Assembly: GCA_040389905.1 (NCBI GenBank) | Contig: JAZJZK010000059.1 | Coordinates: 1-62,192, forward strand | Length of the DNA stretch: 62,192 nucleotides | Source: Gemmatimonadota bacterium | Lineage (GTDB): Bacteria > Gemmatimonadota > Gemmatimonadetes > Gemmatimonadales > Gemmatimonadaceae | Direction: 5' to 3' | Shown here: piece by piece, positions 51,041-62,077 of the stretch | Position numbering within the stretch: the first letter of the stretch is position 1 | Layout of the letters: every line of letters starts with the position of its first letter | Made by a program: the position numbers and the translations under genes | Notes under the pieces: model-generated | Database searches by the model: none | What the model saw: only the letters and a program-made list of their open reading frames with translations | Told to the model about the DNA's origin: nothing

Positions 51041-51231
51041 CGATCGGCGACGTCGGCGCGATCGGCATGGCGCGGTGGCTGGCGAGCCTGCTCGACGACG
51101 TGAGTCCGACCGATTCCGTCGTGCTGGTGGCGATGCCCCTCGGATTGGCGGCGGTGGCGCTCGCGACGTGCTACCTGCCCGCTCGGCGAGCGGCGGGGAG
51201 CGATCCGCTGACGGTGCTGCGCCGGGACTGA
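51041..51231 (+). pseudogene. Inverted 3' end of an ABC (MacB/FtsX-type) permease
   Basis: IGDVGAIGMARWLASLL..VSPTD..CYLPARRAA..DPLTVLR, the typical permease C-terminus; continues the minus-strand fragment in frame if flipped. Confidence 0.8.
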
Positions 51232-51250: not shown

Positions 51251-51880
51251 CGACGTCGCCGATCGCCACACCAAGCCCCGCCAGCACGGCACGTTCGCCC
51301 AGTATCAGGCGAATGAGTCTCCTTGGCTCGGCGCCTACGGCGAGCCGGATGCCAACCTCACGGCCGCGATTCGCGACGTGAAGTGACATGACGCCATAAA
51401 TCCCGACGACCGCCAGAATCAATCCGACGAGGGCGAAGCCGCCAAGCAGGAGCTTCGTGAGCCGCCGCGTCGCGAATGTGCGATCGACGATGGTCGAGAG
51501 ACTCTGTACATCATCGAGCGGAATCGACGGCTCCATCTCGGTGCTCGCACGACGTGTGTTGGCGATCACGCCCGCCCATGGGCCGCTCGTGCGCGACGCG
51601 AGTGACAACGGATTGCCACCGGCCTGAGGAAGGCTGAAGTACATGTGCGGCCAGGGCGCTTCTGCCGCGTCTCCGTCACGCAAAGCGCCAACGACACCGA
51701 TGATCGAGAACCATTGCTGGTTGCCCGTATTGCGAACCTGCTTGCCGATCGCCTTCGCTCCCTTCCAGTATCGGTTCGCGAATGTCGCGTCCACCAATGA
51801 CGACGTTCACACTCGCCGAGTCATCGCCAGCAACAAAATCGCGTCCCGCAAGCAGCGGAATGCTGAGAGTATTGAAGTAC
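51251..51880 (-). pseudogene. Internal fragment of an ABC (MacB/FtsX-type) permease
   Basis: YFNTLSIPLLAGRDF...(frameshift ~51797)...VDATFANRYW, VGIYGVMS, REVGIRLAVGA; 5' part missing, starts at an attC. Confidence 0.85.
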
Positions 51881-51966
51881 GCCCCAGCTAAGCTGCGAAC
51901 GCATCACATAAATGCGAGCGAACCGAGCTACCGACGATCGCTCGTCAGCTTCAGCGCACGTTATTT
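51874..51966 (-). other. attC site (distal; HicAB cassette), non-canonical R'
   Basis: Minus: AAATAAC..gctGaagctgAcgagcg ... cgttcgcagcttagc..GTACTTC; two unpaired bases. Confidence 0.75.
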
Positions 51967-51974
51967 GCAAGTGA

Positions 51975-52196
51975 CTATGCGGCCAGAAAGTCTTCAGCGA
52001 AGACGCCGATGTCCCGGCAGATCTGGCGCAAGAGAATCGGTGAGATGTCGCGTCCTCCGTGCATCGGCACCGTCGTGGCGCGGCCATCCGGATGACGGAA
52101 CTGCTTGTGAGACCCACGCTGCCGGACCTCGACGAACCCGAGCCGTTCAAGGCGCGCGACGACCTCACGCGGCTTGAGCACCGGCAGCGAACCCAT
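51975..52196 (-). CDS. hicA: HicA-family toxin
   Basis: [28 protein letters not shown]. Confidence 0.93.
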
Positions 52197-52406
52197 TCAG
52201 GCAACGCGAACCGTCTGGGTCCCAACGAACTCGGCTTCGAGGTGCGGCTCACCGTCCTCGAGGAGCATGGCCACAACCTCTGCGAGGTTGGCCTGCAATT
52301 CTTCCATGCTCTCGCCCTGGCTATGCGCGCCGCGAAAGCCCGGAATATGGCCCACGAGCAACCCAGTCTCCGTGTCCCGCTCGACCACTGCTGTATATGA
52401 CCGCAT
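52197..52406 (-). CDS. hicB: HicB-family antitoxin (short form)
   Basis: GGAGG RBS; VGHIPGFRGAHSQGESMEE. Confidence 0.9.
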   Translation of the reverse strand: MRSYTAVVERDTETGLLVGHIPGFRGAHSQGESMEELQANLAEVVAMLLEDGEPHLEAEFVGTQTVRVA

Positions 52407-52624
52407 GCTGACCCTCCAGTGCAGAGATTCTGATTTGAAGATAGGGACGGTCCGCCATGGTGGATAGCTACGCGAGCAGGGACGAACGCGGGCGCTCAGC
52501 AATGATGCGTGCCGAGGATGCACGCTGACGGCGGCGTTCCCAGTTCGAGGGGAGTGTTGCAATGATCCGGCGACACGAGCATCGCAGTTGTCGTGCACTG
52601 TCCTGTCATCGACAGCTTGTTGCC

Positions 52625-52694
52625 ATATAACGTCTTTGGCCATCAGCCGCGAGCGCCGCTGCGGCGAACGCCGGCTGCATGGCCTTGCTGGCAT
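52625..52694 (-). other. attC site with degenerate R''
   Basis: Minus: TGCCAGC aaggccatGcagccg ... cggctgatggcc aaagac GTTATAT. Confidence 0.7.
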
Positions 52695-52921
52695 GTCACA
52701 CTATCCGACGATCAAGCCCGCGTCTTCCTGGCGCCAGCGATTCTGTCGGGGCCGCGCACACCGACGGGCAATCGGCGGAACGGGCCGCGATCAACAGCAT
52801 CTGGCCTTTGTGGGTCTTCAGGAAGTCGAGTGCGTAGCAGCGTGTTGGCGGAAAGGAGTTGTGCGTTTGCGATCCGCGGTCGACGGTCAACGATTTCTCC
52901 CGGCCGACTAAACTGCGCCGG

Positions 52922-53686
52922 TTAACCCGGCCCCGTCTTGCTGCCGATCACGTAGCCAAATTGAATCGATCCAAACGTGATCACGGTTAGCAGGTATGAG
53001 ACGATTCCCTGGACGCACCGCGCATCGACGCCGGCATCGCGCAGGGTGGCGGCGTATTGTCTGGTGTGGCGCGCGTCCACGATCAGCACATGTCCGCCGG
53101 AATTAAGCACGCGCGCGATCTCGCGCACGGCGGTTTGCCGCTCGCCGGCGTTGTAGATGTTGTGCAACGCCATGCTCGAGAGGACGACGTTGAAGCTGGC
53201 GTCGTCGAAAGGCAGCTTGCGTGCATCACCGGTGTGCACCTCGACCTTGTCGGCCACGCCTTCGATCATCGCGTTGTTGAGTGTCCCCGCAGCGTTGTTG
53301 CCGCTAAGATCTTCTTGCTGCCATTTGTCGATCCCGACCGCGCGGCCGGTGGAGAGCCGCTTGGCGGCGCCGATCAGAAACAAGCCGAGACCGCACCCCA
53401 CATCCAGCACGCGCTCATCACCCCGCCAGGCAATCTTGTCGAGGTATTCTTCGCGCTCGCGCGCCTTGCCGATCTTGCTGTCGTAAAGCATCCACAGGCC
53501 CATCGCGCCGCTGCCCAGGCCGGCCCCGATCAATGGCCGCGCGATCGCCGCGATGAGGTCTTCCCTTGACCACACGCCGAGCAGCCGCGTGATCAGCGAG
53601 ATCACTCCCAGCGCTGCCACGATGAACAGGTTGCGCACCGCCAGCGGCGCGTCGATGCCGTAGTTGGGGGCGGGATTGCGTTTCAT
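52922..53686 (-). CDS. Class I SAM-dependent methyltransferase with N-terminal TM helices
   Basis: YGIDAP; VLDVGCGLG; GDARKLPF; SSMALHNI. Confidence 0.9.
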   Translation of the reverse strand: MKRNPAPNYGIDAPLAVRNLFIVAALGVISLITRLLGVWSREDLIAAIARPLIGAGLGSGAMGLWMLYDSKIGKAREREEYLDKIAWRGDERVLDVGCGLGLFLIGAAKRLSTGRAVGIDKWQQEDLSGNNAAGTLNNAMIEGVADKVEVHTGDARKLPFDDASFNVVLSSMALHNIYNAGERQTAVREIARVLNSGGHVLIVDARHTRQYAATLRDAGVDARCVQGIVSYLLTVITFGSIQFGYVIGSKTGPG

Positions 53687-53747
53687 TCAGCGGCAAAACC
53701 TAATACTTGTTTGCTCACGACGCCACCACATGCCGGGGCGCTGACCA

Positions 53748-53842
53748 AACCAACGCCAAAGTGCACTTGCAAGGGAATCAAACAAATGCGAGCGCAGCGC
53801 GCTACCGAAGCTCCTTTGACAAGTGCAACGCCTCGTTAGAAT
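53748..53842 (-). other. attC site (DUF2971 cassette)
   Basis: Minus: ATTCTAAC..gtTgcacttgTcaaagga ... tcccttgcaagtgcac..GTTGGTT. Confidence 0.85.
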
Positions 53843-53857
53843 GCACGGCGGGAGACA

Positions 53858-54634
53858 CTATCCCTCAGACTGGATTTCTACTCCGAAATGATGCGTCGCT
53901 AGGTGCGCTCGCTTCACGGCAACTGAAGGTACGCGCGCCTGCGCCCATTGGGCGAGGGTGGCTTGAGTGGACGTGGTCATCCGAGCCCCAAATATGACGG
54001 CAGTGAGGCACTCAGGCGGAAACGCTTTCACGCCCTGTCCCCAGATAATAAGCCTCCATTCTTGCTCATATGACCAAGGCGTTGCCTTCGTCAGGAATGT
54101 CGGACGAAAGGTATCATCACCAGAATGCGTGATCGGCCTAGGTACGGGATACTCGCTCTGGTAATGGACCGCATGCGCTTCCCCGATAGCGGCGGCCAGT
54201 TGCGAACGGTCGAACTCTAGGCACACGCCTGTGTGCGAGTGCGCATAGTGACCCCACATGAGAATGTCGTCGGGGCATGCAGACATGCAGCAAAGGCCAA
54301 TGTCTACGTCAAACCGGCGGTCGATGTTCTGAGCCACATTCGCCTCCCGGATCTGCCGATCTGAAACGACGCGCTCAACTATCTCCTTACGCTGGTTGGC
54401 GGTGAGCCCGGGCTCCTTCGCTACGGTCTTCGTGGCGTAGGCGCGTATTTGCTCCCGAGTGCCATCGAGCGAAAGGCGCGGCCGACAATCGAAGGGATCA
54501 TTGAACGCCGTGCGAGCAGCAAAGAACAACTCATGGTGCAAGATAGTACGCTCGGCGTACTTCAGGCGCTCGCCTGCAAGGCTCGCGTATTTGTAGAGAT
54601 GGCGCGGCTCGTTGTCAGCTGTGGGAGCTGCCAT
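53858..54634 (-). CDS. DUF2971-domain protein
   Basis: LYKY, FNDPFD, LMWGHYA..HTGVCLEF, TK...WSYEQEWR; GGAG RBS before MAAPT. Confidence 0.88.
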   Translation of the reverse strand: MAAPTADNEPRHLYKYASLAGERLKYAERTILHHELFFAARTAFNDPFDCRPRLSLDGTREQIRAYATKTVAKEPGLTANQRKEIVERVVSDRQIREANVAQNIDRRFDVDIGLCCMSACPDDILMWGHYAHSHTGVCLEFDRSQLAAAIGEAHAVHYQSEYPVPRPITHSGDDTFRPTFLTKATPWSYEQEWRLIIWGQGVKAFPPECLTAVIFGARMTTSTQATLAQWAQARVPSVAVKRAHLATHHFGVEIQSEG

Positions 54635-54656
54635 CCGGACTCCGTGGGATGAGTGC

Positions 54657-54748
54657 ATTCTACGCCCAAGCTCAGCTGCGGGCGAGTTCATAAAGCGAGC
54701 GAAGCGAGCCATCATTGAATCGCCCGACTGCTGCAACGCATGTTATTC
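54657..54748 (-). other. attC site (HEPN cassette), R' missing one T
   Basis: Minus: GAATAAC (contains the gene stop)..gttGcagcagTcgggcga ... tcgcccgcagctgagc..GTAGAAT. Confidence 0.8.
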
Positions 54749-55852
54749 AGCAGCTTGGCGCTCCAGGGCTGAACCGAGGTCGGCGGGCGCAGCGAACGGT
54801 ATGATGCGACCGAACATGCCCCAGACTGTGCGCCACAGCATCGTTGTTCGGTCATTTAGGACAATTAACTGCTCGGGATCTTCCGCATCAATGAACCCGT
54901 GAGCGATAGCATTGCGAAAGCGTGATAGGCTCATGCTGCGCGGCTGCGCATAGAAGACCTCATTGATATAGAGGCTGGCCGCGGGGCCGAAACACACCTC
55001 CAATGCATGCTTGGCTCTGACGGAGAATGCAGGATCTGCTACCGAATGATATAGGTGTCTGACCTGCGCCAACGTGAGACGTCCGTTGCTGCCGCGCAGA
55101 TACTCGTCAATGGCTGCTTGCTTGGCGGCATCGTTGGTGCGGGCCAGAGGGCGTATGAGTAACACCGCGTCAATGAGGCACTCGAATGCGTTCCAGTAGG
55201 CCGCAAACGTGCGGACTGTGTCGTCTCGCGAAACCTCATTCATGAGGTTTCTGGACTCTCTAATCCAATAGAGCGCCGTGGCAACCTTGCGCTGAATATT
55301 CAGCGGCAACGTAGCGAATGCACTGACGGTCGGCGCGACGTCATGTGCATCGAGCGCCACCAATGTGCCACCGCCGCGAAGATGTGTGATCCAACACCAC
55401 CAACGCACAGGATTGTTGCCCCAATCCGCTAGTGTCAGTATGCCGCAAACTACGTTTGCTCGCGCAATCGCGTCAGACACTCCAGCGACGGTGCGTTCGC
55501 TGATGGTAATGGTGCCCTTGAGGGTAGTTCGGGCGTTCAGATCGATTGAATTGGAGGACCGCAGAACCTGTTCCTGGGAAATAGAGATTCCAAGGGTCGG
55601 ATAGTTCAGTGAAGTCGACGGAGCCTCGAAGTCTCCGTATACGAGAATGTGCAGCCGATCTTCCCATTCGGCGGGCCAGCTCAGCAGACGCTGCTCGAGG
55701 GCCGCAACGCCCCACGCATGACTCCAAGACAGGCCACTCGATTGGAGCGCTTTGGCGCGAACGAACACATCGTCCGCCTGAGCATCGTCAGTTGCCACGA
55801 GGAGTTTCGGAAGGGGCTGTGGTCCTAAAGATGCGCTGCTGTTGTGTGGCAC
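54743..55852 (-). CDS. Hypothetical protein with C-terminal HEPN-like motif
   Basis: YWNAFECL and RNAIAH (R-x4-H) motifs; start uncertain. Confidence 0.7.
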   Translation of the reverse strand: MPHNSSASLGPQPLPKLLVATDDAQADDVFVRAKALQSSGLSWSHAWGVAALEQRLLSWPAEWEDRLHILVYGDFEAPSTSLNYPTLGISISQEQVLRSSNSIDLNARTTLKGTITISERTVAGVSDAIARANVVCGILTLADWGNNPVRWWCWITHLRGGGTLVALDAHDVAPTVSAFATLPLNIQRKVATALYWIRESRNLMNEVSRDDTVRTFAAYWNAFECLIDAVLLIRPLARTNDAAKQAAIDEYLRGSNGRLTLAQVRHLYHSVADPAFSVRAKHALEVCFGPAASLYINEVFYAQPRSMSLSRFRNAIAHGFIDAEDPEQLIVLNDRTTMLWRTVWGMFGRIIPFAAPADLGSALERQAAE

Positions 55853-55942
55853 ACCGTGATATATGGCGTCCGGCGAGAGGCCGTCCCGACGAGGATGCCG
55901 GATGCGAGCGCAGCTCTCGGGCGCGCGCCATCGCCGTTCAGG

Positions 55943-56284
55943 CTAGACATCATGCGCGCGCGCCTCGACCTGTCTTTCAAGCTCGTCGGGATCACGGTGC
56001 TGATCGAGGCACCCGAGAACGTGAACCGCTCCCGGGATGACCACGTAGTAGATGCTGTACGGGAAACGCGGAATGAGCGCGCGCCGCACGGGCGGATCGA
56101 GTTGATCGAAGACGATCCGACGAGCTTGCGGCCAGCGCCGGACCGACTTCAGGCACGCATCGATCGCACGGATCAGTTTGACGCCGAGTCCGGCTCGCTG
56201 GCCGGCGTACCACCCAACGGCTGCGTCCATGTCGGCCTCGGCCTCCTCGTGGATGATGAGGGCAGCCCGCCGTCCGCGTGTCAC
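55943..56284 (-). CDS. RelE/ParE-family toxin
   Basis: EAEADM..AVGWY..QRAGLG, RRALIPRFPYSIYY; GTGA overlap with antitoxin. Confidence 0.85.
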   Translation of the reverse strand: MTRGRRAALIIHEEAEADMDAAVGWYAGQRAGLGVKLIRAIDACLKSVRRWPQARRIVFDQLDPPVRRALIPRFPYSIYYVVIPGAVHVLGCLDQHRDPDELERQVEARAHDV

Positions 56285-56550
56285 AACCGACGACGGCGTT
56301 TCACAGAGCGTTTCGTCGGCTCGCCCGCCGCCGCCCGGGCGAGCAGCCGATCCTTCACTTCCTCCCATGGCGTCCCTGCGGCGGGATCCGCTAGATACGC
56401 AGCGTGTCGGCGCGTGATCTCAGTCTCGTGGGTCGAGGGCACGGGCAGGTCGTCCTGGTGCTTCAGGGCGATACTGTCCCAGAGATCAACGGCCAGTTGA
56501 GCGCGTTGGCTGGGCGTGAGGTGGCTGAAGTCGAAGAGCGGGTGCGCCAT
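56281..56550 (-). CDS. Addiction-module antitoxin component
   Basis: LTPSQRAQLAVDLWDSI...EITRR..AY..DP..GTPWEEVK. Confidence 0.85.
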   Translation of the reverse strand: MAHPLFDFSHLTPSQRAQLAVDLWDSIALKHQDDLPVPSTHETEITRRHAAYLADPAAGTPWEEVKDRLLARAAAGEPTKRSVKRRRRL

Positions 56551-56744
56551 CTCTGAAGAATGTCGACCGTAGCCGGACGGGGCAAGCGACGGCGTGTCTG
56601 GGCGAACAATTGGCGGTCCCGGGCGGTTCCGGGACACGAGAGTCGCCGTTCAGGTGGATCGCAACGCGTGCAGGACCGACAGTGCCTTGGCGAGCGGCAC
56701 TCGGCACCATGAGCTATGCGAACACCTCAGATTGGTAGATGTCT

Positions 56745-57287
56745 ATCCGCCAGAAGTCGCGCAACAGGGTGAGGGCGGCGGTCGGCAGGGGAACGAGGCG
56801 ATCTTTCCCACCCTTGCCGCCGCGGATATGGAGCAACTGGCGCGCGCCGTCAATCGCCGGCACCCTGCAGCCGCAGCCCCTCGAGCAGCCGGAGGCCGCA
56901 GGTATGGAGGAGGGTCAGGCAGACGCGGTACGGACGCATGCGCACGGCCGCCAGCACGCGCTGCACTTCCTCTTGGCTCAGGACGACGGGGAGCCGTGCC
57001 TCGCGTTTCGGGCGCGCAACGTCGAGGACCGTCCACTGCCAGCCGAGCGTTTCCTGATAGAAGAACTTCAACCCGCACAGTGTCTGCGTAAAACTGCTCG
57101 CGGCAATCCGGCGCACGGTACTGAGATGCAGCAGGTAATCGCGCAGCTGCTCTTCCGTCAGCCGGTCAGGGGAGATCCCATAGAACTTGGCCAACTGCGA
57201 GACCGCGAGCAGGTACGCCTTGATCGTGGGCTCGGCATAGCCACGGAGCTGCAGGTCCTCGGTCATCCGGCGGCGAAGGGCTGTCAA
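56745..57287 (-). pseudogene. Tyrosine recombinase remnant (SAM-like N-domain), of the type paired with IS91-family transposases
   Basis: LRRRMTEDLQLRGY..TIKAY, LPVVLSQEEV, CGLRLLE; frameshift ~56860; GKGGKDRLVPL; similarity stops at LRDFWR, so no HxxR or Tyr. Confidence 0.8.
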
Positions 57288-57405
57288 ACCATCCTCTCGG
57301 AAAAGGGTCGAGAGGACCAGACAGCGCAACTCTCCCGCGGGCAATCACCTGAGGGTGGGGCGCGACGATCCTAATCGCTCCGCCTATCCGCCGCAGGCAG
57401 ATTGA

Positions 57406-57462
57406 GTTCAACAGCAGATTCTGCCGTGGCTTCGCGCGGCAAGAATCTCTGTATCGTTAGCT
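57406..57462 (-). other. attC-like site (FAD oxidoreductase cassette), right arm shortened
   Basis: Minus: AGCTAAC gatacag agattcTtgccg ... cggcagaatct gct GTTGAAC. Confidence 0.65.
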
Positions 57463-57490
57463 GGCGGCGCAACGAAGCCGAGGAATAGTG

Positions 57491-58678
57491 TCAGACGATG
57501 TGCTTCGCCACTTCGCGAGCGAGATCGAACATGAGGCTGGCCTTACCTGGGAGCGCCACGGTCAAACCCCGGACGCCGTGACCGCCCATGCCCTCATCCT
57601 CGGTGTACACCTTGATATCCACACACGGATGAGAGGCGTTGTATTGCTCGGTCTTGAAACAGGTGCGGGGCGTGAAGCCTGACATGCTGAATGGCCGAAC
57701 CGACGCCGACGCGAAGCACTGGTCCATCTCGGCGTTCAACGCAGCCACGTCGGACGGTGCCGTCCTCAGCGCTTCGAGCGAGCACCCGCGGACACCGTAC
57801 ACGACTCGGAAGTCCGTTCCGGCCGCGAGTATGTGATCGCGGTAGGGCACCAGGGTGAAGTCACCCCGCGTCCCGTCCTCCTTTTCTACATCCAGCCAGA
57901 CCGTGATCCGGTCAAGGTCCTGCTGCGACTCTCGTATACCGCGCTTGAACGCAACAACCAGGCATTTCTTCCGAATCAGTGGGAGGCTGACGCCGATTCC
58001 CTCGAGGAGCTCGTGCGACCATGCTCCCGCAGCCACGATACACTGATCGCAGGTGAGCGTCCCGCGTCTCCCGTGCCATTCGTAGTCCACGCCAGTCATT
58101 CCGTGCGGCCCGCGGCGCAGGTCCAGTACCCTCGCCCCCTCCATGACCGTACCCGTGGCTTTGATCGCGGGCAGGTGTCTGCTATCCTCGAGTTGTCCGG
58201 CGATATGCCGGCGCATGTCGCGGACGAGTGCCGGAAAATCAACGGCACAGTCCGGAGTAACCCAACCGCCCGAGAAGTTGATGCCAAGCGACGCAAGCCT
58301 CGCCCGGTCGCCGGCCTCCAGAGGGTAGGCATCTGGAACGCGTCGACCGTCGGCCTTCCACTTCGCCCACATATCAGTACGAGCACGGAGGGTGTCGTCG
58401 GTTAGCGCAAGGAAATAGGCCTTCTGTGGGCCGACGAGATACTTCGCCTTGATGTCCCAGTCGATGTTCCGGTGCGTCCATGCCCGCTCAGCCAAACTTT
58501 CGGAGGGGTACAGCAGGCCGCTGTGGAGCCACTTCTGATTGGTGTCGGTGGCGCTCGGGACATCATCGCCGTGGCAGAGTAGGGTGACGCGCTTACCCTC
58601 CTCGGCCAGTCGGTGCGCAATGGCGGCACCCGCGCAGCCACCGACTACTACAACCTGAGGCAGTCGTCCGTCCGTCAT
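57491..58678 (-). CDS. FAD-dependent oxidoreductase (DAO/GlpD-like)
   Basis: VVVVGGCAG, NQKWLHSGLLY, IVAAGAWS; GAGG RBS. Confidence 0.8.
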   Translation of the reverse strand: MTDGRLPQVVVVGGCAGAAIAHRLAEEGKRVTLLCHGDDVPSATDTNQKWLHSGLLYPSESLAERAWTHRNIDWDIKAKYLVGPQKAYFLALTDDTLRARTDMWAKWKADGRRVPDAYPLEAGDRARLASLGINFSGGWVTPDCAVDFPALVRDMRRHIAGQLEDSRHLPAIKATGTVMEGARVLDLRRGPHGMTGVDYEWHGRRGTLTCDQCIVAAGAWSHELLEGIGVSLPLIRKKCLVVAFKRGIRESQQDLDRITVWLDVEKEDGTRGDFTLVPYRDHILAAGTDFRVVYGVRGCSLEALRTAPSDVAALNAEMDQCFASASVRPFSMSGFTPRTCFKTEQYNASHPCVDIKVYTEDEGMGGHGVRGLTVALPGKASLMFDLAREVAKHIV

Positions 58679-58712
58679 TCGCCACCTCTTACTGGAATCA
58701 AAAGGGGACTAT

Positions 58713-58807
58713 GTCCAACGCCGAAGCTCTGCTGCAAGCGACTCAATAAAATGCGAAGCGCAGCGAGCTACCGCAAATCGCTTGACAGCAGCAGCGCACG
58801 TTAAGGC
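58713..58807 (-). other. attC site (zinc-ribbon cassette)
   Basis: Minus: GCCTTAAC..gctGctgctgTcaagcga ... tcgcttgcagcagagc..GTTGGAC; canonical extrahelical G and T. Confidence 0.88.
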
Positions 58808-58828
58808 GCAGGCGCACAACTGGCCGCA

Positions 58829-59239
58829 CTATGCCTTCCCGTCGCCGCGCTCGACCTCGACTCCCGTTAGGCCAATCGTCAACCGTCGTATGCCCCCCAC
58901 CTTACTCAGTATGCGACGCAGATTCCTGGTGAAGCCGCATGTACGACACTCGACGTGCGCTACGAATGCAAAAGAGCCGTTCGTTTGCTCCAGTGAGCGC
59001 ACGCGATATCGGAACCACTTGAACGCGCATTGTGGGCAAGGGAGCGACGGATACTGAACAGGTATCTCGCGTCGGGCGACGTCAAATATCGTTCCGCAAT
59101 TCGCGCAATGTCCGTGGATACACTGTACGACCTTCGCCTTCCCCTCGACTTCCCAAGAGTCTTCACCGGCAGTGAACTTTGTAAGCACCACAGCCTCGCG
59201 CGCCCGTACGTCATCGAGTCCGCAACTAGGGCATTGCAT
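58829..59239 (-). CDS. Hypothetical protein with four CxxC motifs (double zinc ribbon)
   Basis: CPSC, CANC, CPQC, CRTC in 136 aa; bounded by attC sites. Confidence 0.7.
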   Translation of the reverse strand: MQCPSCGLDDVRAREAVVLTKFTAGEDSWEVEGKAKVVQCIHGHCANCGTIFDVARREIPVQYPSLPCPQCAFKWFRYRVRSLEQTNGSFAFVAHVECRTCGFTRNLRRILSKVGGIRRLTIGLTGVEVERGDGKA

Positions 59240-59344
59240 CAACGGTCCAGGACCGCTCTGCGATAGCGGAGCAGCGACCGGGGGTCTGGTGAGGGAGCGC
59301 TTGGGAGTCAATGCAAGTGTCCTTCGATGAGATAGGTGTTGTCG

Positions 59345-59363
59345 GCCTAACGCATAAGTTGAG
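59345..59363 (-). other. R' half of an attC site interrupted by the IS
   Basis: Minus: ctcaacttatgc GTTAGGC; GTTAGGC nearly complements R'' GCCTTAAC at 58800-58807. Confidence 0.65.
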
Positions 59364-59464
59364 TTGGTATGAAGCGGCTGGACCTCCGCGGTCCCGTGGT
59401 GGCAACGTACGCCCCACACACTTTACACGCGGTCGGTGCCGCACAACCAACCGGGAGGCCAGCC

Positions 59465-60491
59465 ATGGATAGCATAGGGATCGACCTGCACAAACGCGAG
59501 AGCCAACTGTGTATCCTCACGGCGGACGGTGAGCTGATCGAACGCCGCATCGTGACCAGTCGCGAGCGGTTCACGGCCGTCTTGGGCGAGCGGCCGCCGG
59601 CGCGCATTCTGCTCGAGGCTGCGACGGAGAGTGAGTGGGTCGCCCGCCATCTCGAATCGCTCGGCCATACGGTGATCGTCGTGGACCCGAGCTTTGCCGC
59701 GATGTACGCTACGCGCTCCAAGCGGGTGAAGACGGACAAGCGTGACGCGCGCACGTTGTACGAGGCGCTACAACTCGGCGCGTATCGCGCGATCCATCGC
59801 GCGTCGGATGCGCAACGCCAGGTCCGCGCGCAGCTCGCGGTACGCGATGCGTTGGTGCGGACGCGCACGACGGTACGTGGCGATCATCAAGGCGTCCGTG
59901 CGCCGCGAAGGACTGCGGATTCCCAGCGGCGACGCCGAACACACCGTGACCAGGCTCCTCGCGTTACCGTTACCCGCCCACGTGTTCGAGGCGCTCGCCC
60001 CGTTTGATCGCGCTGTGGGGGCGCTCCAAACCGAGTTGGAGGCCGCCGACGAGCGGCTCAGCGCGTTGGCCACGGCGAATACCGCGATCACGCGGTTGCG
60101 CACGATGCCGAGCATCGGCCCCGTGACGGCGCTGGCGTTTGTGGCATCGCTTGACGACGTGGAGCGCTTTCACAGCGCGCACCAGGTGCAGGAGTATCTA
60201 GGATTGGTGCCAAGTGAGTATAGCTCGGGCGACCGACGACTCCGCGGGCGGATCACGAAACGCGGCGATGCGCGGATGCGGTGGCTGTTGGTCGAGGCGG
60301 CGTGGCGCATTCTCCGCTCGCCGAATCCGGAGCTCGCCGCGCTGAAGGCGTGGGGCCAACAGATTGCAGAGCGCCGTGGCAAGCGCATCGCCACGGTCGC
60401 CGTCGCGCGACGCGTGGCGGGCATTCTCTACGCGATGTGGCGGGACGACGTTGATTACGCGGCGAGCACAGTGCGCGCGGTGGCTGCCTAA
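59465..60491 (+). pseudogene. IS110-family transposase with a +1 frameshift near 59870
   Basis: GIDLHK, LLEA, KTDKRDA (DEDD); PSIGPVTA, YLGLVP.EYSSG, ITKRGD, AVARR; removing one A joins the two frames. Confidence 0.88.
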
Positions 60492-60760
60492 CGCGCACCG
60501 ACCGCACGCACCACTCCGCCGACCGAGTATCGGGGTGACTGACCTGGGCACGCGCTGAGCGCGACGCAGCTCATGGCCGCTATCGAGACCGAAGTTTAGT
60601 TGAGCGCCGCCGTGTCCAATCCGTATACCCATCTGCGCCGGCGAGGCATTCCCTCGCTTCCACATCGAGCGCGAACAGAAGACTGAGCAGCATCTCGCGA
60701 TCTCAGGTCGGCATCACATCACCACGGCGCTCGTTCTTACGACGGGGCTTGACATCGCAC
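60492..60760 (+). ncRNA. Putative bridge/seek RNA region of the IS1111-type element
   Basis: ~270-nt non-coding stretch between transposase stop and right IR, with short matches to the target and to the IS end. Confidence 0.5.
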
Positions 60761-60958
60761 GCCGCTTCACAGAAGAAGTGCTGGCAAGCCAACAAGGGTT
60801 CGCTGCGGACGCCGACGGTCTTCTGCACCGCGGAGCCGGGAGGTGTGCGCCGCGGGACGCGCACTCGTATCCAATGGGGCACAGGCGCGTTGCTCGTGTT
60901 GCTCCCAGGTCTCAAGTCTCATATTATGAGCCACCTAATGAAGGGACATGGAGCCTCG

Positions 60959-62077
60959 ATGCGTACGCTCGCAATTACATCTCTCGTCGTCGTCCTGGCA
61001 GCGTCCGGCGGGTTCATCACCTCGGCTGCGGCGCAGGCGTACACCATCCGAGACCTTGGAACGATTGGCCCGGGCATCACCTCAGGTCAGGCGATCAACA
61101 GCGCTGGACAGGTCGCTGGTGTGTTCTTCCCCCCAGCGCCCACGGTAAACGCATTCGGCTTTCTCTTTAATGGCACCGCAACAACCCTGCTCGGGATTCC
61201 TGCTGGCGGATACACCATCAGCGACGCCTATGCCATCAACAACGCGGGGCAAACCGCCGGATACGTCGTTTCGCCGGTTTTGCCGATTGAACGCCAGGGG
61301 TTCTTGAACAGCGGCGGTGCTTGGACCTTGCTCGGCACACTCGGTGGACGAGCCTCGACCGCGACGGGCATCAACGACCTCGCGCAAGTCGTCGGCGGCT
61401 CCTACACGGCAGGAGACGCTGCTTTCCATCCGTTTCTGTACGGTGCGGGCGGAATGTTGGATCTTGGTAGTCTGGGAGGCTTCGAGAGTGCCGCGTCTGA
61501 CATCAACAACCTGGGGCAGGTGGTCGGATACAGCCAACTCGTAGGCGATGCTGTGTTTCACGCATTCCTCAACGAGAGCGGCATCATGACCGACCTCGGG
61601 ACACTCGGAGGCGGCAACAGCCGCGCAACTAGCATCACCGACTCGGGGCTGATCACGGGCTTTAGCGACGTCATCGGGGGCGCCGCAACGCACGCCTTCG
61701 TCTACGGCGGCGGAACTATGCAGGACATTGGATCTCTTGGTGGCAACTTTTCTTCAGGTTTCGGCATCAACAGCAGCGGCCAGGTAGCCGGCTGGAGCAA
61801 TCTCGCCGGCAACACAGTCTTTCACGGCTTCCTCTACAGCGGGGGCGTCATGACGGATCTGAATGACTTGCTCCCTGACGATTCCGAGTGGGAGCTCGAG
61901 GTTGCGTACGGGATCAACGACGCTGGCCAGATGACGGGCTCCGGCCTCATCGGCGGGGAGCGACACGCGTTCCTGCTCACGTCGGAAGCTGTCCCGGAGC
62001 CCGGGACGTTTGGGTTGATCGGACTTGGCCTCGGCTTTCTCGCACTCGGCTGGCGCCGCAGGCCGTCTGCGACGTGA
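60959..62077 (+). CDS. HAF-repeat extracellular protein with PEP-CTERM sorting signal
   Basis: Signal peptide; repeated DLGTLGG..S.A..IN..GQVVG and HAF; VPEPGT-TM-RRR C-terminus. Confidence 0.92.
   Translation: MRTLAITSLVVVLAASGGFITSAAAQAYTIRDLGTIGPGITSGQAINSAGQVAGVFFPPAPTVNAFGFLFNGTATTLLGIPAGGYTISDAYAINNAGQTAGYVVSPVLPIERQGFLNSGGAWTLLGTLGGRASTATGINDLAQVVGGSYTAGDAAFHPFLYGAGGMLDLGSLGGFESAASDINNLGQVVGYSQLVGDAVFHAFLNESGIMTDLGTLGGGNSRATSITDSGLITGFSDVIGGAATHAFVYGGGTMQDIGSLGGNFSSGFGINSSGQVAGWSNLAGNTVFHGFLYSGGVMTDLNDLLPDDSEWELEVAYGINDAGQMTGSGLIGGERHAFLLTSEAVPEPGTFGLIGLGLGFLALGWRRRPSAT

Follow-up and report, generated by a model that had tools for sequence, protein, structure and literature searches.

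Introduction

[quoted passage not shown] A 2022 survey counted 2961 CALINs and noted that draft assemblies raise such counts artificially (Neron et al. 2022, PMC9024848). Gemmatimonadota have been listed as a phylum with integrons (PMC8618304), and an element of over 10 attC is reported from Gemmatirosa (PMC9024848). Here we describe a cassette array located in a stretch of 62,192 nucleotides, hereafter the window, from a Gemmatimonadota bacterium of the family Gemmatimonadaceae (assembly GCA_040389905.1, contig JAZJZK010000059.1). The array is very likely an orphaned integron cassette array, i.e., a CALIN, which was probably built by an IntI that no longer adjoins it and is probably decaying. 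Its last attC is fused into an ABC-permease gene and its first attC is cut by an attC-targeting IS1111-type element.

IS1111-type elements are described as carrying guide stretches (seekRNA) that match the strands of their targets (PMC11187229), and some tyrosine recombinases associated with IS91-family elements are described as lacking the insertion that is specific to IntI (10.1101/542381). A C at the outer unpaired position of attC is reported as rare in clinical cassettes, yet sites with this C recombine well (PMC3053210). The secondary-site motif of IntI is given as GNT (PMC10127599).

The window is an entire contig of an assembly of 5.08 Mb that is 84.6% complete. The GyrB of this assembly shares 78% identity with that of a named Gemmatimonadaceae genome, 67% with one from Longimicrobiales and 56–59% with those of an acidobacterium and a planctomycete; by this single marker, compared over four genomes, the host belongs to Gemmatimonadota and probably to Gemmatimonadaceae. 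The array is internal to this contig and flanked on both sides, so the inflation of CALIN numbers by draft genomes does not apply to it. Genomes are labeled with G-numbers (the assembly studied here is G000 and the window is its contig C59), fetched loci with L-numbers and contigs of G000 with C-numbers. The tallies of IntI, of IS91-type elements in the family and of DNA matches in congeners include the unpublished genomes G007, G034 or G266, and no claim is based on these alone. Contigs from one sequencing run, possibly the source of the assembly and hence not independent of it, were the same as the window with no differences across both frameshifts and the GTA sites. An Rfam scan produced 0 matches.

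The attC Sites

The sites were identified with a profile built from 70 attC found beside intI in nine loci of relatives, with no G000 sequence included. Four sites in the window, s1, s3, s4 and s6, matched this profile at 35–50 bits (Table 1), while the next-best match in the window scored 10.8 bits and no score above 10.7 bits was obtained when the entire window was dinucleotide-shuffled 20 times. The strong sites are spaced by no more than 3.97 kb and are accompanied by s2 and the half site s7; at least two attC within 4 kb, the criterion for a CALIN, are therefore present. On the top (minus) strand s1, s4 and s6 consist of AAC, a 4-nt spacer, 3 paired positions, an unpaired G, 6 further paired positions, an unpaired T or A, the loop, the mirror-image arm, another 6 nt and G|T. 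The first spacer of s3 has 5 nt instead of 4. The unpaired bases of the four strong sites are on the 3′ arm of the bottom strand (scores of 11–13 for the correct arm and 7.5–8.5 for the other). Over the family, the unpaired base of the bottom strand proximal to R″ is a C in 70 of 72 sites, and the spacer between R″ and L″ is often 4 nt. A reversed orientation of the sites was considered as the meaning of this C and was ruled out by the direction of the genes, the R′/R″ matches and the orientation of the sites behind intI.

An initial annotation of the window, made from the DNA alone, had described a decaying CALIN-like array of minus-strand genes separated by imperfect palindromes that run from AAC to GTT. 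The palindromes were found at the coordinates it gave, all genes identified between 51975 and 59239 are on the minus strand, and the loop motif assigned to four sites is that of s1, s3, s4 and s6. The arms pair except for one or two unpaired bases, and these are located on the gene-proximal arm. Other parts of the description had to be modified. Whole AAC and GTT boxes are found at s3 and s6 only; R′ reads GTA in s1 and s4, and s2 and s7 are defective as listed in Table 1. The palindrome named s5 had been counted as an attC, but it does not match the attC profile and is the end hairpin of a mobile element, an over-count by one. Nor are the genes separated by sites throughout: the 2.67 kb from s5 to s4 hold four genes with no intervening attC. 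The match claimed between the first bases of three cassettes and their own R″ held for the DUF2971 cassette except for one missing T, but extended over only 4–5 bases in the HicAB and zinc-ribbon cassettes. In the cassettes of the methyltransferase and the oxidoreductase, the first bases differ from the cassette's own R″. As to whether the bottom strands fold like attC, the pairing of the stems was confirmed, but folding energy by itself does not single out s1, s3, s4 and s6 (z −0.5 to −1.5, not significant). The stem of s2 pairs fully by eye and has a folding z of −2.8, though its profile score is low. A possible hidden site at 55850–55945 has the loop motif, but it was not counted because it lacks a profile match and its z is +0.6.

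A first mechanical scan for attC missed, at its threshold, three of the four strong sites of the window and caught unrelated repeats, and it was not used for counts. An abundant palindromic repeat composed of 9-bp tandem units, unrelated to attC (C7, C8, C14, C19, C25, C34, C35 and other contigs), mimics attC in scans of this kind. At C34 85448–85526 and C31 916–1100, attC are broken after the L″ arm or the loop by a sequence like a reversed group II intron 3′ end. We take this sequence to resemble the IIC-attC introns, which would make it a candidate third parasite of attC in G000. The ends of contigs C38, C42 and C65 share another 52-bp hairpin-like end with AAC/GTT.

Integrases in the Assembly and in the Family

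No intact intI was found in the 62-kb contig, no TIGR02249 match in the G000 assembly is over the cut-off, and a six-frame search of the assembly with a profile of the family IntI detected no intact gene. The absence of an integrase from the window, as initially annotated, was thus upheld, the broken tyrosine recombinase located within the array not being IntI. The annotation also held that the responsible intI lies elsewhere or was lost. A decayed intI is present on C15 (53798–54150), and the incompleteness of the assembly leaves both halves of that claim standing. The C15 fragment scores 56 bits as IntI and 26 bits as an IS91-type recombinase, and in the tree it falls in the IntI clade at 99/99 with only 18% of the columns filled. 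It is followed by degenerate attC on the same strand, in the orientation of the family. The region C15 51868–54150, composed of the fragment and then small genes and two degenerate attC, with an IS110 scrap at 52077–52176, is probably a dead integron.

IntI over the cut-off was present in 69 of 120 sampled genomes of the family and in 24 of the 33 congeners that are at least 85% complete. Twenty family intI loci were fetched; in 14 of them, 9 of which were those used to build the attC profile, attC are located downstream of intI on the same strand with none upstream, and the other 6 reach the contig end within 1.4 kb. Two loci (L155 and L156) are large complete integrons with 16 and 15 very uniform attC in under 10 kb. 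Because of this layout, the missing intI of the window would lie beyond position 59363, where an IS and a gene for a PEP-CTERM protein are found in its place.

These results, together with the mobility of the cassettes described below, identify the array as a CALIN: its attC are of the type associated with intI, its cassettes are mobile, and neither the contig nor the assembly has IntI. This bears out the initial annotation, whose term "decaying" fits the broken core boxes and the pseudogenes, the features for which we use it as well.

Cassettes and Their Genes

The genes of the array were compared with those of 40 congeners. The HicAB cassette is present in the G029 array with 97% identity, the same cassette start and different neighbors, and in the G261 array with 80–89% identity, again with different neighbors. 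In G261 the homologue of the methyltransferase gene is two cassettes upstream of HicAB, whereas both are adjacent in the window. HicAB and the methyltransferase homologue therefore behave as gene cassettes, one unit with differing neighbors, and the fixed synteny without sites that would have spoken against the annotation was not observed, the cassettes being reshuffled among congeners. The remaining cassettes had no DNA match among the matches listed from the 40 congeners, beyond which there were 44 weaker matches.

The cargo is typical, with two toxin–antitoxin pairs, one or two candidate anti-phage genes and two enzymes (Table 1). Atlas neighbors of the 369-residue protein include HEPN_Apea or MauJ in 15–24% of members, and the protein is possibly HEPN/ApeA-like and a candidate anti-phage nuclease, which we mention as a lead only.

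We considered whether the array occupies the ancestral integron locus of the genus. The intI of G029 is near a tricorn gene, but the G000 orthologue of that gene is on C3 (68% vs. 48%) with no intI or attC match there, and the idea was rejected. In five of five congeners no attC was found within about 8 kb after the tricorn orthologue, which indicates that the array is not a fixture of that locus.

Table 1. Features of the cassette array and of its borders in the window
Feature	Position	Strand	Remarks
Inverted C-terminal scrap of ABC permease pseudogene, residues 919–968 of homologue	51073..51222	+	tblastn, 80% identity
ABC permease (FtsX) remnant, residues ~705–889, frameshifted	51321..51879	-	coding starts one base past the crossover G of s1
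attC s1, last site of the array	51873..51967	-	E 3e-12; crossover G at 51880, then permease DNA (G|TA)
HicB-like antitoxin and HicA toxin cassette genes	51975..52409	-	Pfam; same cassette with other neighbors in G029 and G261
attC s2, CAT/ATG type	52623..52694	-	R″ degenerate (AGC), 9-nt spacer; weak profile match, 2.8 bits
S-adenosylmethionine-dependent methyltransferase cassette gene	52922..53686	-	Pfam; 75% homologue within G261 array
attC s3	53748..53842	-	intact core boxes; E 5e-10
DUF2971 cassette gene; candidate anti-phage family PDC-S31	53858..54634	-	Pfam; PADLOC, E 3e-53
attC s4	54656..54748	-	R′ lacks one T; E 1e-14
Unknown protein of 369 residues, RxxxxH motif	54743..55852	-	no Pfam, NCBIfam or PADLOC match
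Addiction-module antitoxin and ParE-like toxin	55943..56550	-	Pfam; no attC on either side
Tyrosine recombinase of IS91-type two-gene element, frameshifted and truncated	56717..57287	-	not IntI
Left end of IS91-type element	57288..57412	-	starts G|TT (57412)
s5, attC-like terminal hairpin of IS91-type element	57406..57462	+	joined in reverse to the left end of the element
FAD-dependent oxidoreductase (DAO family) cassette gene	57491..58678	-	Pfam
attC s6	58713..58806	-	intact core boxes; E 1e-10
Zinc-ribbon protein cassette gene	58829..59239	-	matches below curated cut-offs
Half attC s7, made up of R′, the spacer and a portion of L′	59345..59361	-	cut by IS
IS1111-type element, 1412 bp	59362..60773	+	subterminal inverted repeats, downstream non-coding region
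IS1111 transposase, frameshifted	59465-60491	+	within 59362..60773

The Two Ends of the Array

At the downstream end, homology to the permease begins at 51879, the base that follows the crossover G of s1, and continues through the frameshift to 51321. Two paralogues have PG-YF where the window has attC-YF. The exactness of the break suggests the action of a recombinase at a secondary site, i.e., an off-target recombination.

At the upstream end, s7 is interrupted by an element with the features of IS1111: a DEDD transposase, subterminal repeats with 7/3 extensions (9 of 10 positions matched) and a long non-coding region downstream. Two guide-like stretches in this region (~60565 and ~60591) spell the L′ box of attC. 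They correspond to the left flank and to the right flank's complement, and co-vary with the flanks in relatives inserted at other targets. This reading comes from an alignment of relatives, and the guide RNA is a prediction from sequence. Relatives of the element were found in 25 of 250 family genomes, and in 16 of 23 relatives the right flank is of the attC type. In G262 an intact copy, 88% identical, interrupts a complete attC at this same L′ base. The left junction in the window fits an attC half, but the right flank is not the other half; the remainder of the attC and everything upstream would therefore have been lost after the insertion. Relatives in L135, L136, L138, L131 and L140 have altered guides and targets other than attC, a natural reprogramming within one clade. 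A scrap that is 95% identical to the transposase (C42 2252–2427) ends abruptly at G|TTAGG, like a joined cassette start. Past the IS, positions 60749–62077 encode the PEP-CTERM protein, which has repeated motifs and, among the matches listed, a close DNA match in one congener only.

The permease junction and the two mobile elements of the array, IS1111 and the IS91-type element described below, had been missed by the initial annotation.

The IS91-Type Element

The recombinase gene within the array and the hairpin s5 are parts of an IS91-type two-gene element. Relatives of the recombinase were examined at 79 loci from many phyla, obtained from the best 80 of 597. The recombinase is usually followed by a transposase-like open reading frame, and s5 corresponds to the hairpin that follows the end of the transposase gene. 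The unit, about 2.3–2.5 kb, starts with NTT and closes with a complementary version of this start, the hairpin and NTT. The triplets at its ends change together (AAC/GTT, AAT/ATT, AAA/TTT). Five copies in one genome (L061–L065) have the unit in common and differ in the sequences outside, and one contig closes from the hairpin to the start (L080). ISfinder includes IS91-family elements with an upstream tyrosine recombinase, e.g., ISAzo26 and ISWz1.

The left end is located at the GTT of the R″ of an attC-like stem in 11 of the 63 loci that have a readable left end and flank (the other 16 of the 79 were dropped), compared to 41 of 4551 control GTT; in 52 of the 63 it is not. Within the family, 18 of 29 motif matches have an attC profile match in the 125 bases upstream (16 reversed and 2 forward) and 11 have none. 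This count was made at a low threshold of 6 bits, and outside G000 eight of the reversed matches reach at least 18 bits. Intact elements are found in forward orientation directly after intI and before the cassettes in L238, and ahead of an array in L239. Three identical intact elements in G070 (L235 and L236) are all reversed at R″; two of them share the adjacent attC and differ beyond it.

In the window the hairpin is reversed onto the left end, a layout unique among the 29 in-family matches, for which either an inversion within the element or a second insertion would account. The Y2 transposase is absent from the window copy, and the G000 assembly contains only an unrelated fragment on C50 and no intact copy of the element. 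Left ends sit at attC on C12 and C61. Contigs C4, C26 and C42 (all three identical) break at the hairpin and C61 at the left end, and such breaks at the ends of the element imply that more copies were left unassembled. At C12 190240–191183 (L032 7240–8200), one cassette is located between a right end with its hairpin and a left end, both forward, with an IS3-like element past the right end. The sequencing run mentioned above includes two contigs that may or may not derive from this organism: one of 2568 bp has the standard layout, and the other, of 1561 bp and at about three times the depth of the array, ends in the hairpin.

From these features of its sequence, the element may well behave as a mimic of a cassette. 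A bolder proposal, which we consider improbable, is that it would be a self-propelled cassette. The rolling-circle transposase would make a single-stranded circle, the end hairpin would serve as a working attC, and the recombinase, a sister of IntI, would integrate the circle at N|TT and also recombine attC of the host, so that it would build and reshuffle orphan arrays where IntI is missing from the genome and would serve as a living model of how integrons arose. No paper on IS91-plus-recombinase elements as cassette-like or attC-homing was found in the open-access literature, searched by titles and the beginnings of abstracts.

Alternative Explanations and Proposed History

That the sites could be repetitive extragenic palindromic (REP)-like repeats or terminators between ordinary genes might be suggested by a shared loop motif that looks repeat-like and by folding energies of the four strong sites that are not significant on their own. 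However, the core boxes, the one-sided bulges, the strict placement after stop codons, the clustering behind intI in relatives and the reshuffling of the cassettes make this explanation very improbable. It is just as hard to regard the recombinase within the array as its own degenerate integrase, which would turn the array into a decayed complete integron. The remnant has a SAM_4 domain and is the second-best TIGR02249 match of the genome (85 bits), but it scores 263 bits with the profile of IS91-associated recombinases and 75 bits with that of the family IntI. It spans the insertion point specific to IntI without the ~29 residues, and groups with the IS91-associated recombinases at 99/99. It is about 80% identical to proteins of 290 residues that also lack the insertion, and its full-length relatives score 203–208 on TIGR02249, below the cut-off of 265. 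A related proposal, that this sister of IntI made some junctions of the array by acting on attC of the host, takes its support from ends that keep to N|TT and target the core boxes of attC, and from the copies on C4, C12, C26, C42 and C61. We regard it as unlikely: the IntI insertion that the recombinase lacks is described as used for hairpin recognition (10.1101/542381), there is no sign that it moves cassettes beyond its own element, and no intact copy is present in the assembly.

The alternative that deserves most consideration is that an intact intI, absent from the incomplete assembly, still services the array in trans, making it a live satellite, an idea compatible with the CALIN label. 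The assembly also lacks rpoB, most congeners have IntI, 6 of 20 family intI loci stop at a contig end, and G000 has 20 attC profile matches at E<0.01 on 9 contigs, many of them intact. On the other side are the broken core boxes of s1, s2 and s4, the state of both mobile elements, which are pseudogenes, and the decayed intI upstream of degenerate attC on C15. We consider continued service quite possible but somewhat less probable than its opposite.

Several observations weigh against the orphaned and decaying array that we favor. The first 700 residues of the permease were not found in the G000 assembly, and only s1 shows a fusion from crossover to coding sequence among 25 G000 sites tested. 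The s1 junction, G|TA, is outside the GNT motif, so an ordinary deletion that ended at the crossover is possible. Neither a partner junction of the IS1111 element nor other copies of its ends were found in the assembly. A joint left by cassette excision was not seen in the one sequencing run, of which only contigs, which cannot show absence, were available. The profile made from relatives took the place of the IntegronFinder covariance model. Finally, one line of evidence in favor of the sites has a limit of its own. Across 30 sites, of which 4 are from the window, the stem of 16 pairs and two bulges is 97% paired and has changes on both sides at 10 of its pairs, a level that 0 of 500 shuffles reached; this covariation count is partly circular, the sites having been picked for pairing, and hence supportive only.

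With the sites, junctions, clades and reshuffled cassettes as observations, a history of the orphaned array can be proposed in which the enzymes, the order of events and the present inactivity are our reconstruction. An IntI of the "inverted" type of the family would have accumulated the cassettes through recombination, at G|TT, of attC bottom strands folded into hairpins. Recombination at the s1 crossover, either an off-target integration or a deletion, would then have linked the array to mid-gene permease sequence. An RNA-guided IS1111 would have inserted into the L′ box of the attC lying furthest upstream, after which a deletion or rearrangement would have taken the rest of that attC and everything upstream, where intI would lie. 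The IS91-type element, which has a recombinase of its own and an attC-like hairpin at its end, would have entered the site of the oxidoreductase cassette and then decayed.

Comparison with Known Systems

As a CALIN the array is ordinary; its legible history is unusual, and the cassette-like IS91-type element is a novel lead. The array records, base by base, two proposed routes of CALIN formation, off-target recombination and IS-driven separation. The frequency of IntI in the family, the co-oriented arrays and the attC type with a C bulge point to the family as a large integron reservoir; for comparison, complete integrons, a stricter measure than IntI over a cut-off, are reported in 20% of Gammaproteobacteria (PMC8618304). 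The array also offers substrates for assays of whether a sister recombinase of IntI, that of IS91-type elements, works on attC-like hairpins, a question relevant to how integrons originated. The initial annotation overrated the novelty in speaking of a lineage with little-studied integrons, given the phylum entry in PMC8618304 and the Gemmatirosa element in PMC9024848. A search of listings of the open-access literature found no study of integrons in this family, and the per-genome tables of the surveys (PMC4889954, PMC9024848) may already give frequencies for the phylum.

Like the CALINs of the surveys (Cury et al. 2016, PMC4889954; PMC9024848), the array has about six attC, no nearby intI, an adjoining IS and a cargo of unknown and toxin–antitoxin genes. 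Unlike the usual CALIN, both its ends can be read at base resolution and its sites are of a lineage-specific type. With canonical attC such as the Vibrio cholerae repeats (VCR) and aadA7 (PMC3053210) these sites have in common the AAC/GTT boxes, whole at s3 and s6 and broken at s1, s2 and s4, and a bottom-strand 3′ arm with two unpaired bases at a distance of six. They differ in the C of the outer bulge, where G is usual and blaVIM-2 is the sole C example given in that source. The location of intI on the cassette strand is as in the inverted-integrase integrons of Treponema and others (PMC4889954); here it is found in all 14 informative loci of the family. The s1 junction resembles off-target recombination by IntI (PMC10127599; attG as cited in PMC12901181) in that an attC is joined at the crossover base to unrelated coding DNA, and differs in its triplet, GTA rather than GNT (PMC10127599). 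The IS1111 element shares with the attC-targeting group of ISKpn4, ISPst6 and ISPa25 the 7/3-nt repeat extensions, the non-coding region, the two short target matches and the attC target (PMC11187229). Its best match among 72,556 plasmids was about 34% identical, and it is probably a separate lineage that shares the attC-targeting habit. The IS91-type element resembles the IS91-family elements with an upstream tyrosine recombinase (10.1101/542381) in its SAM_4 recombinase without the IntI insertion, followed in relatives by a Y2 transposase. Cassette-like ends, a hairpin of the attC kind and homing to attC core boxes were not found described for such elements in the papers searched, and the window copy differs further in the loss of the transposase.

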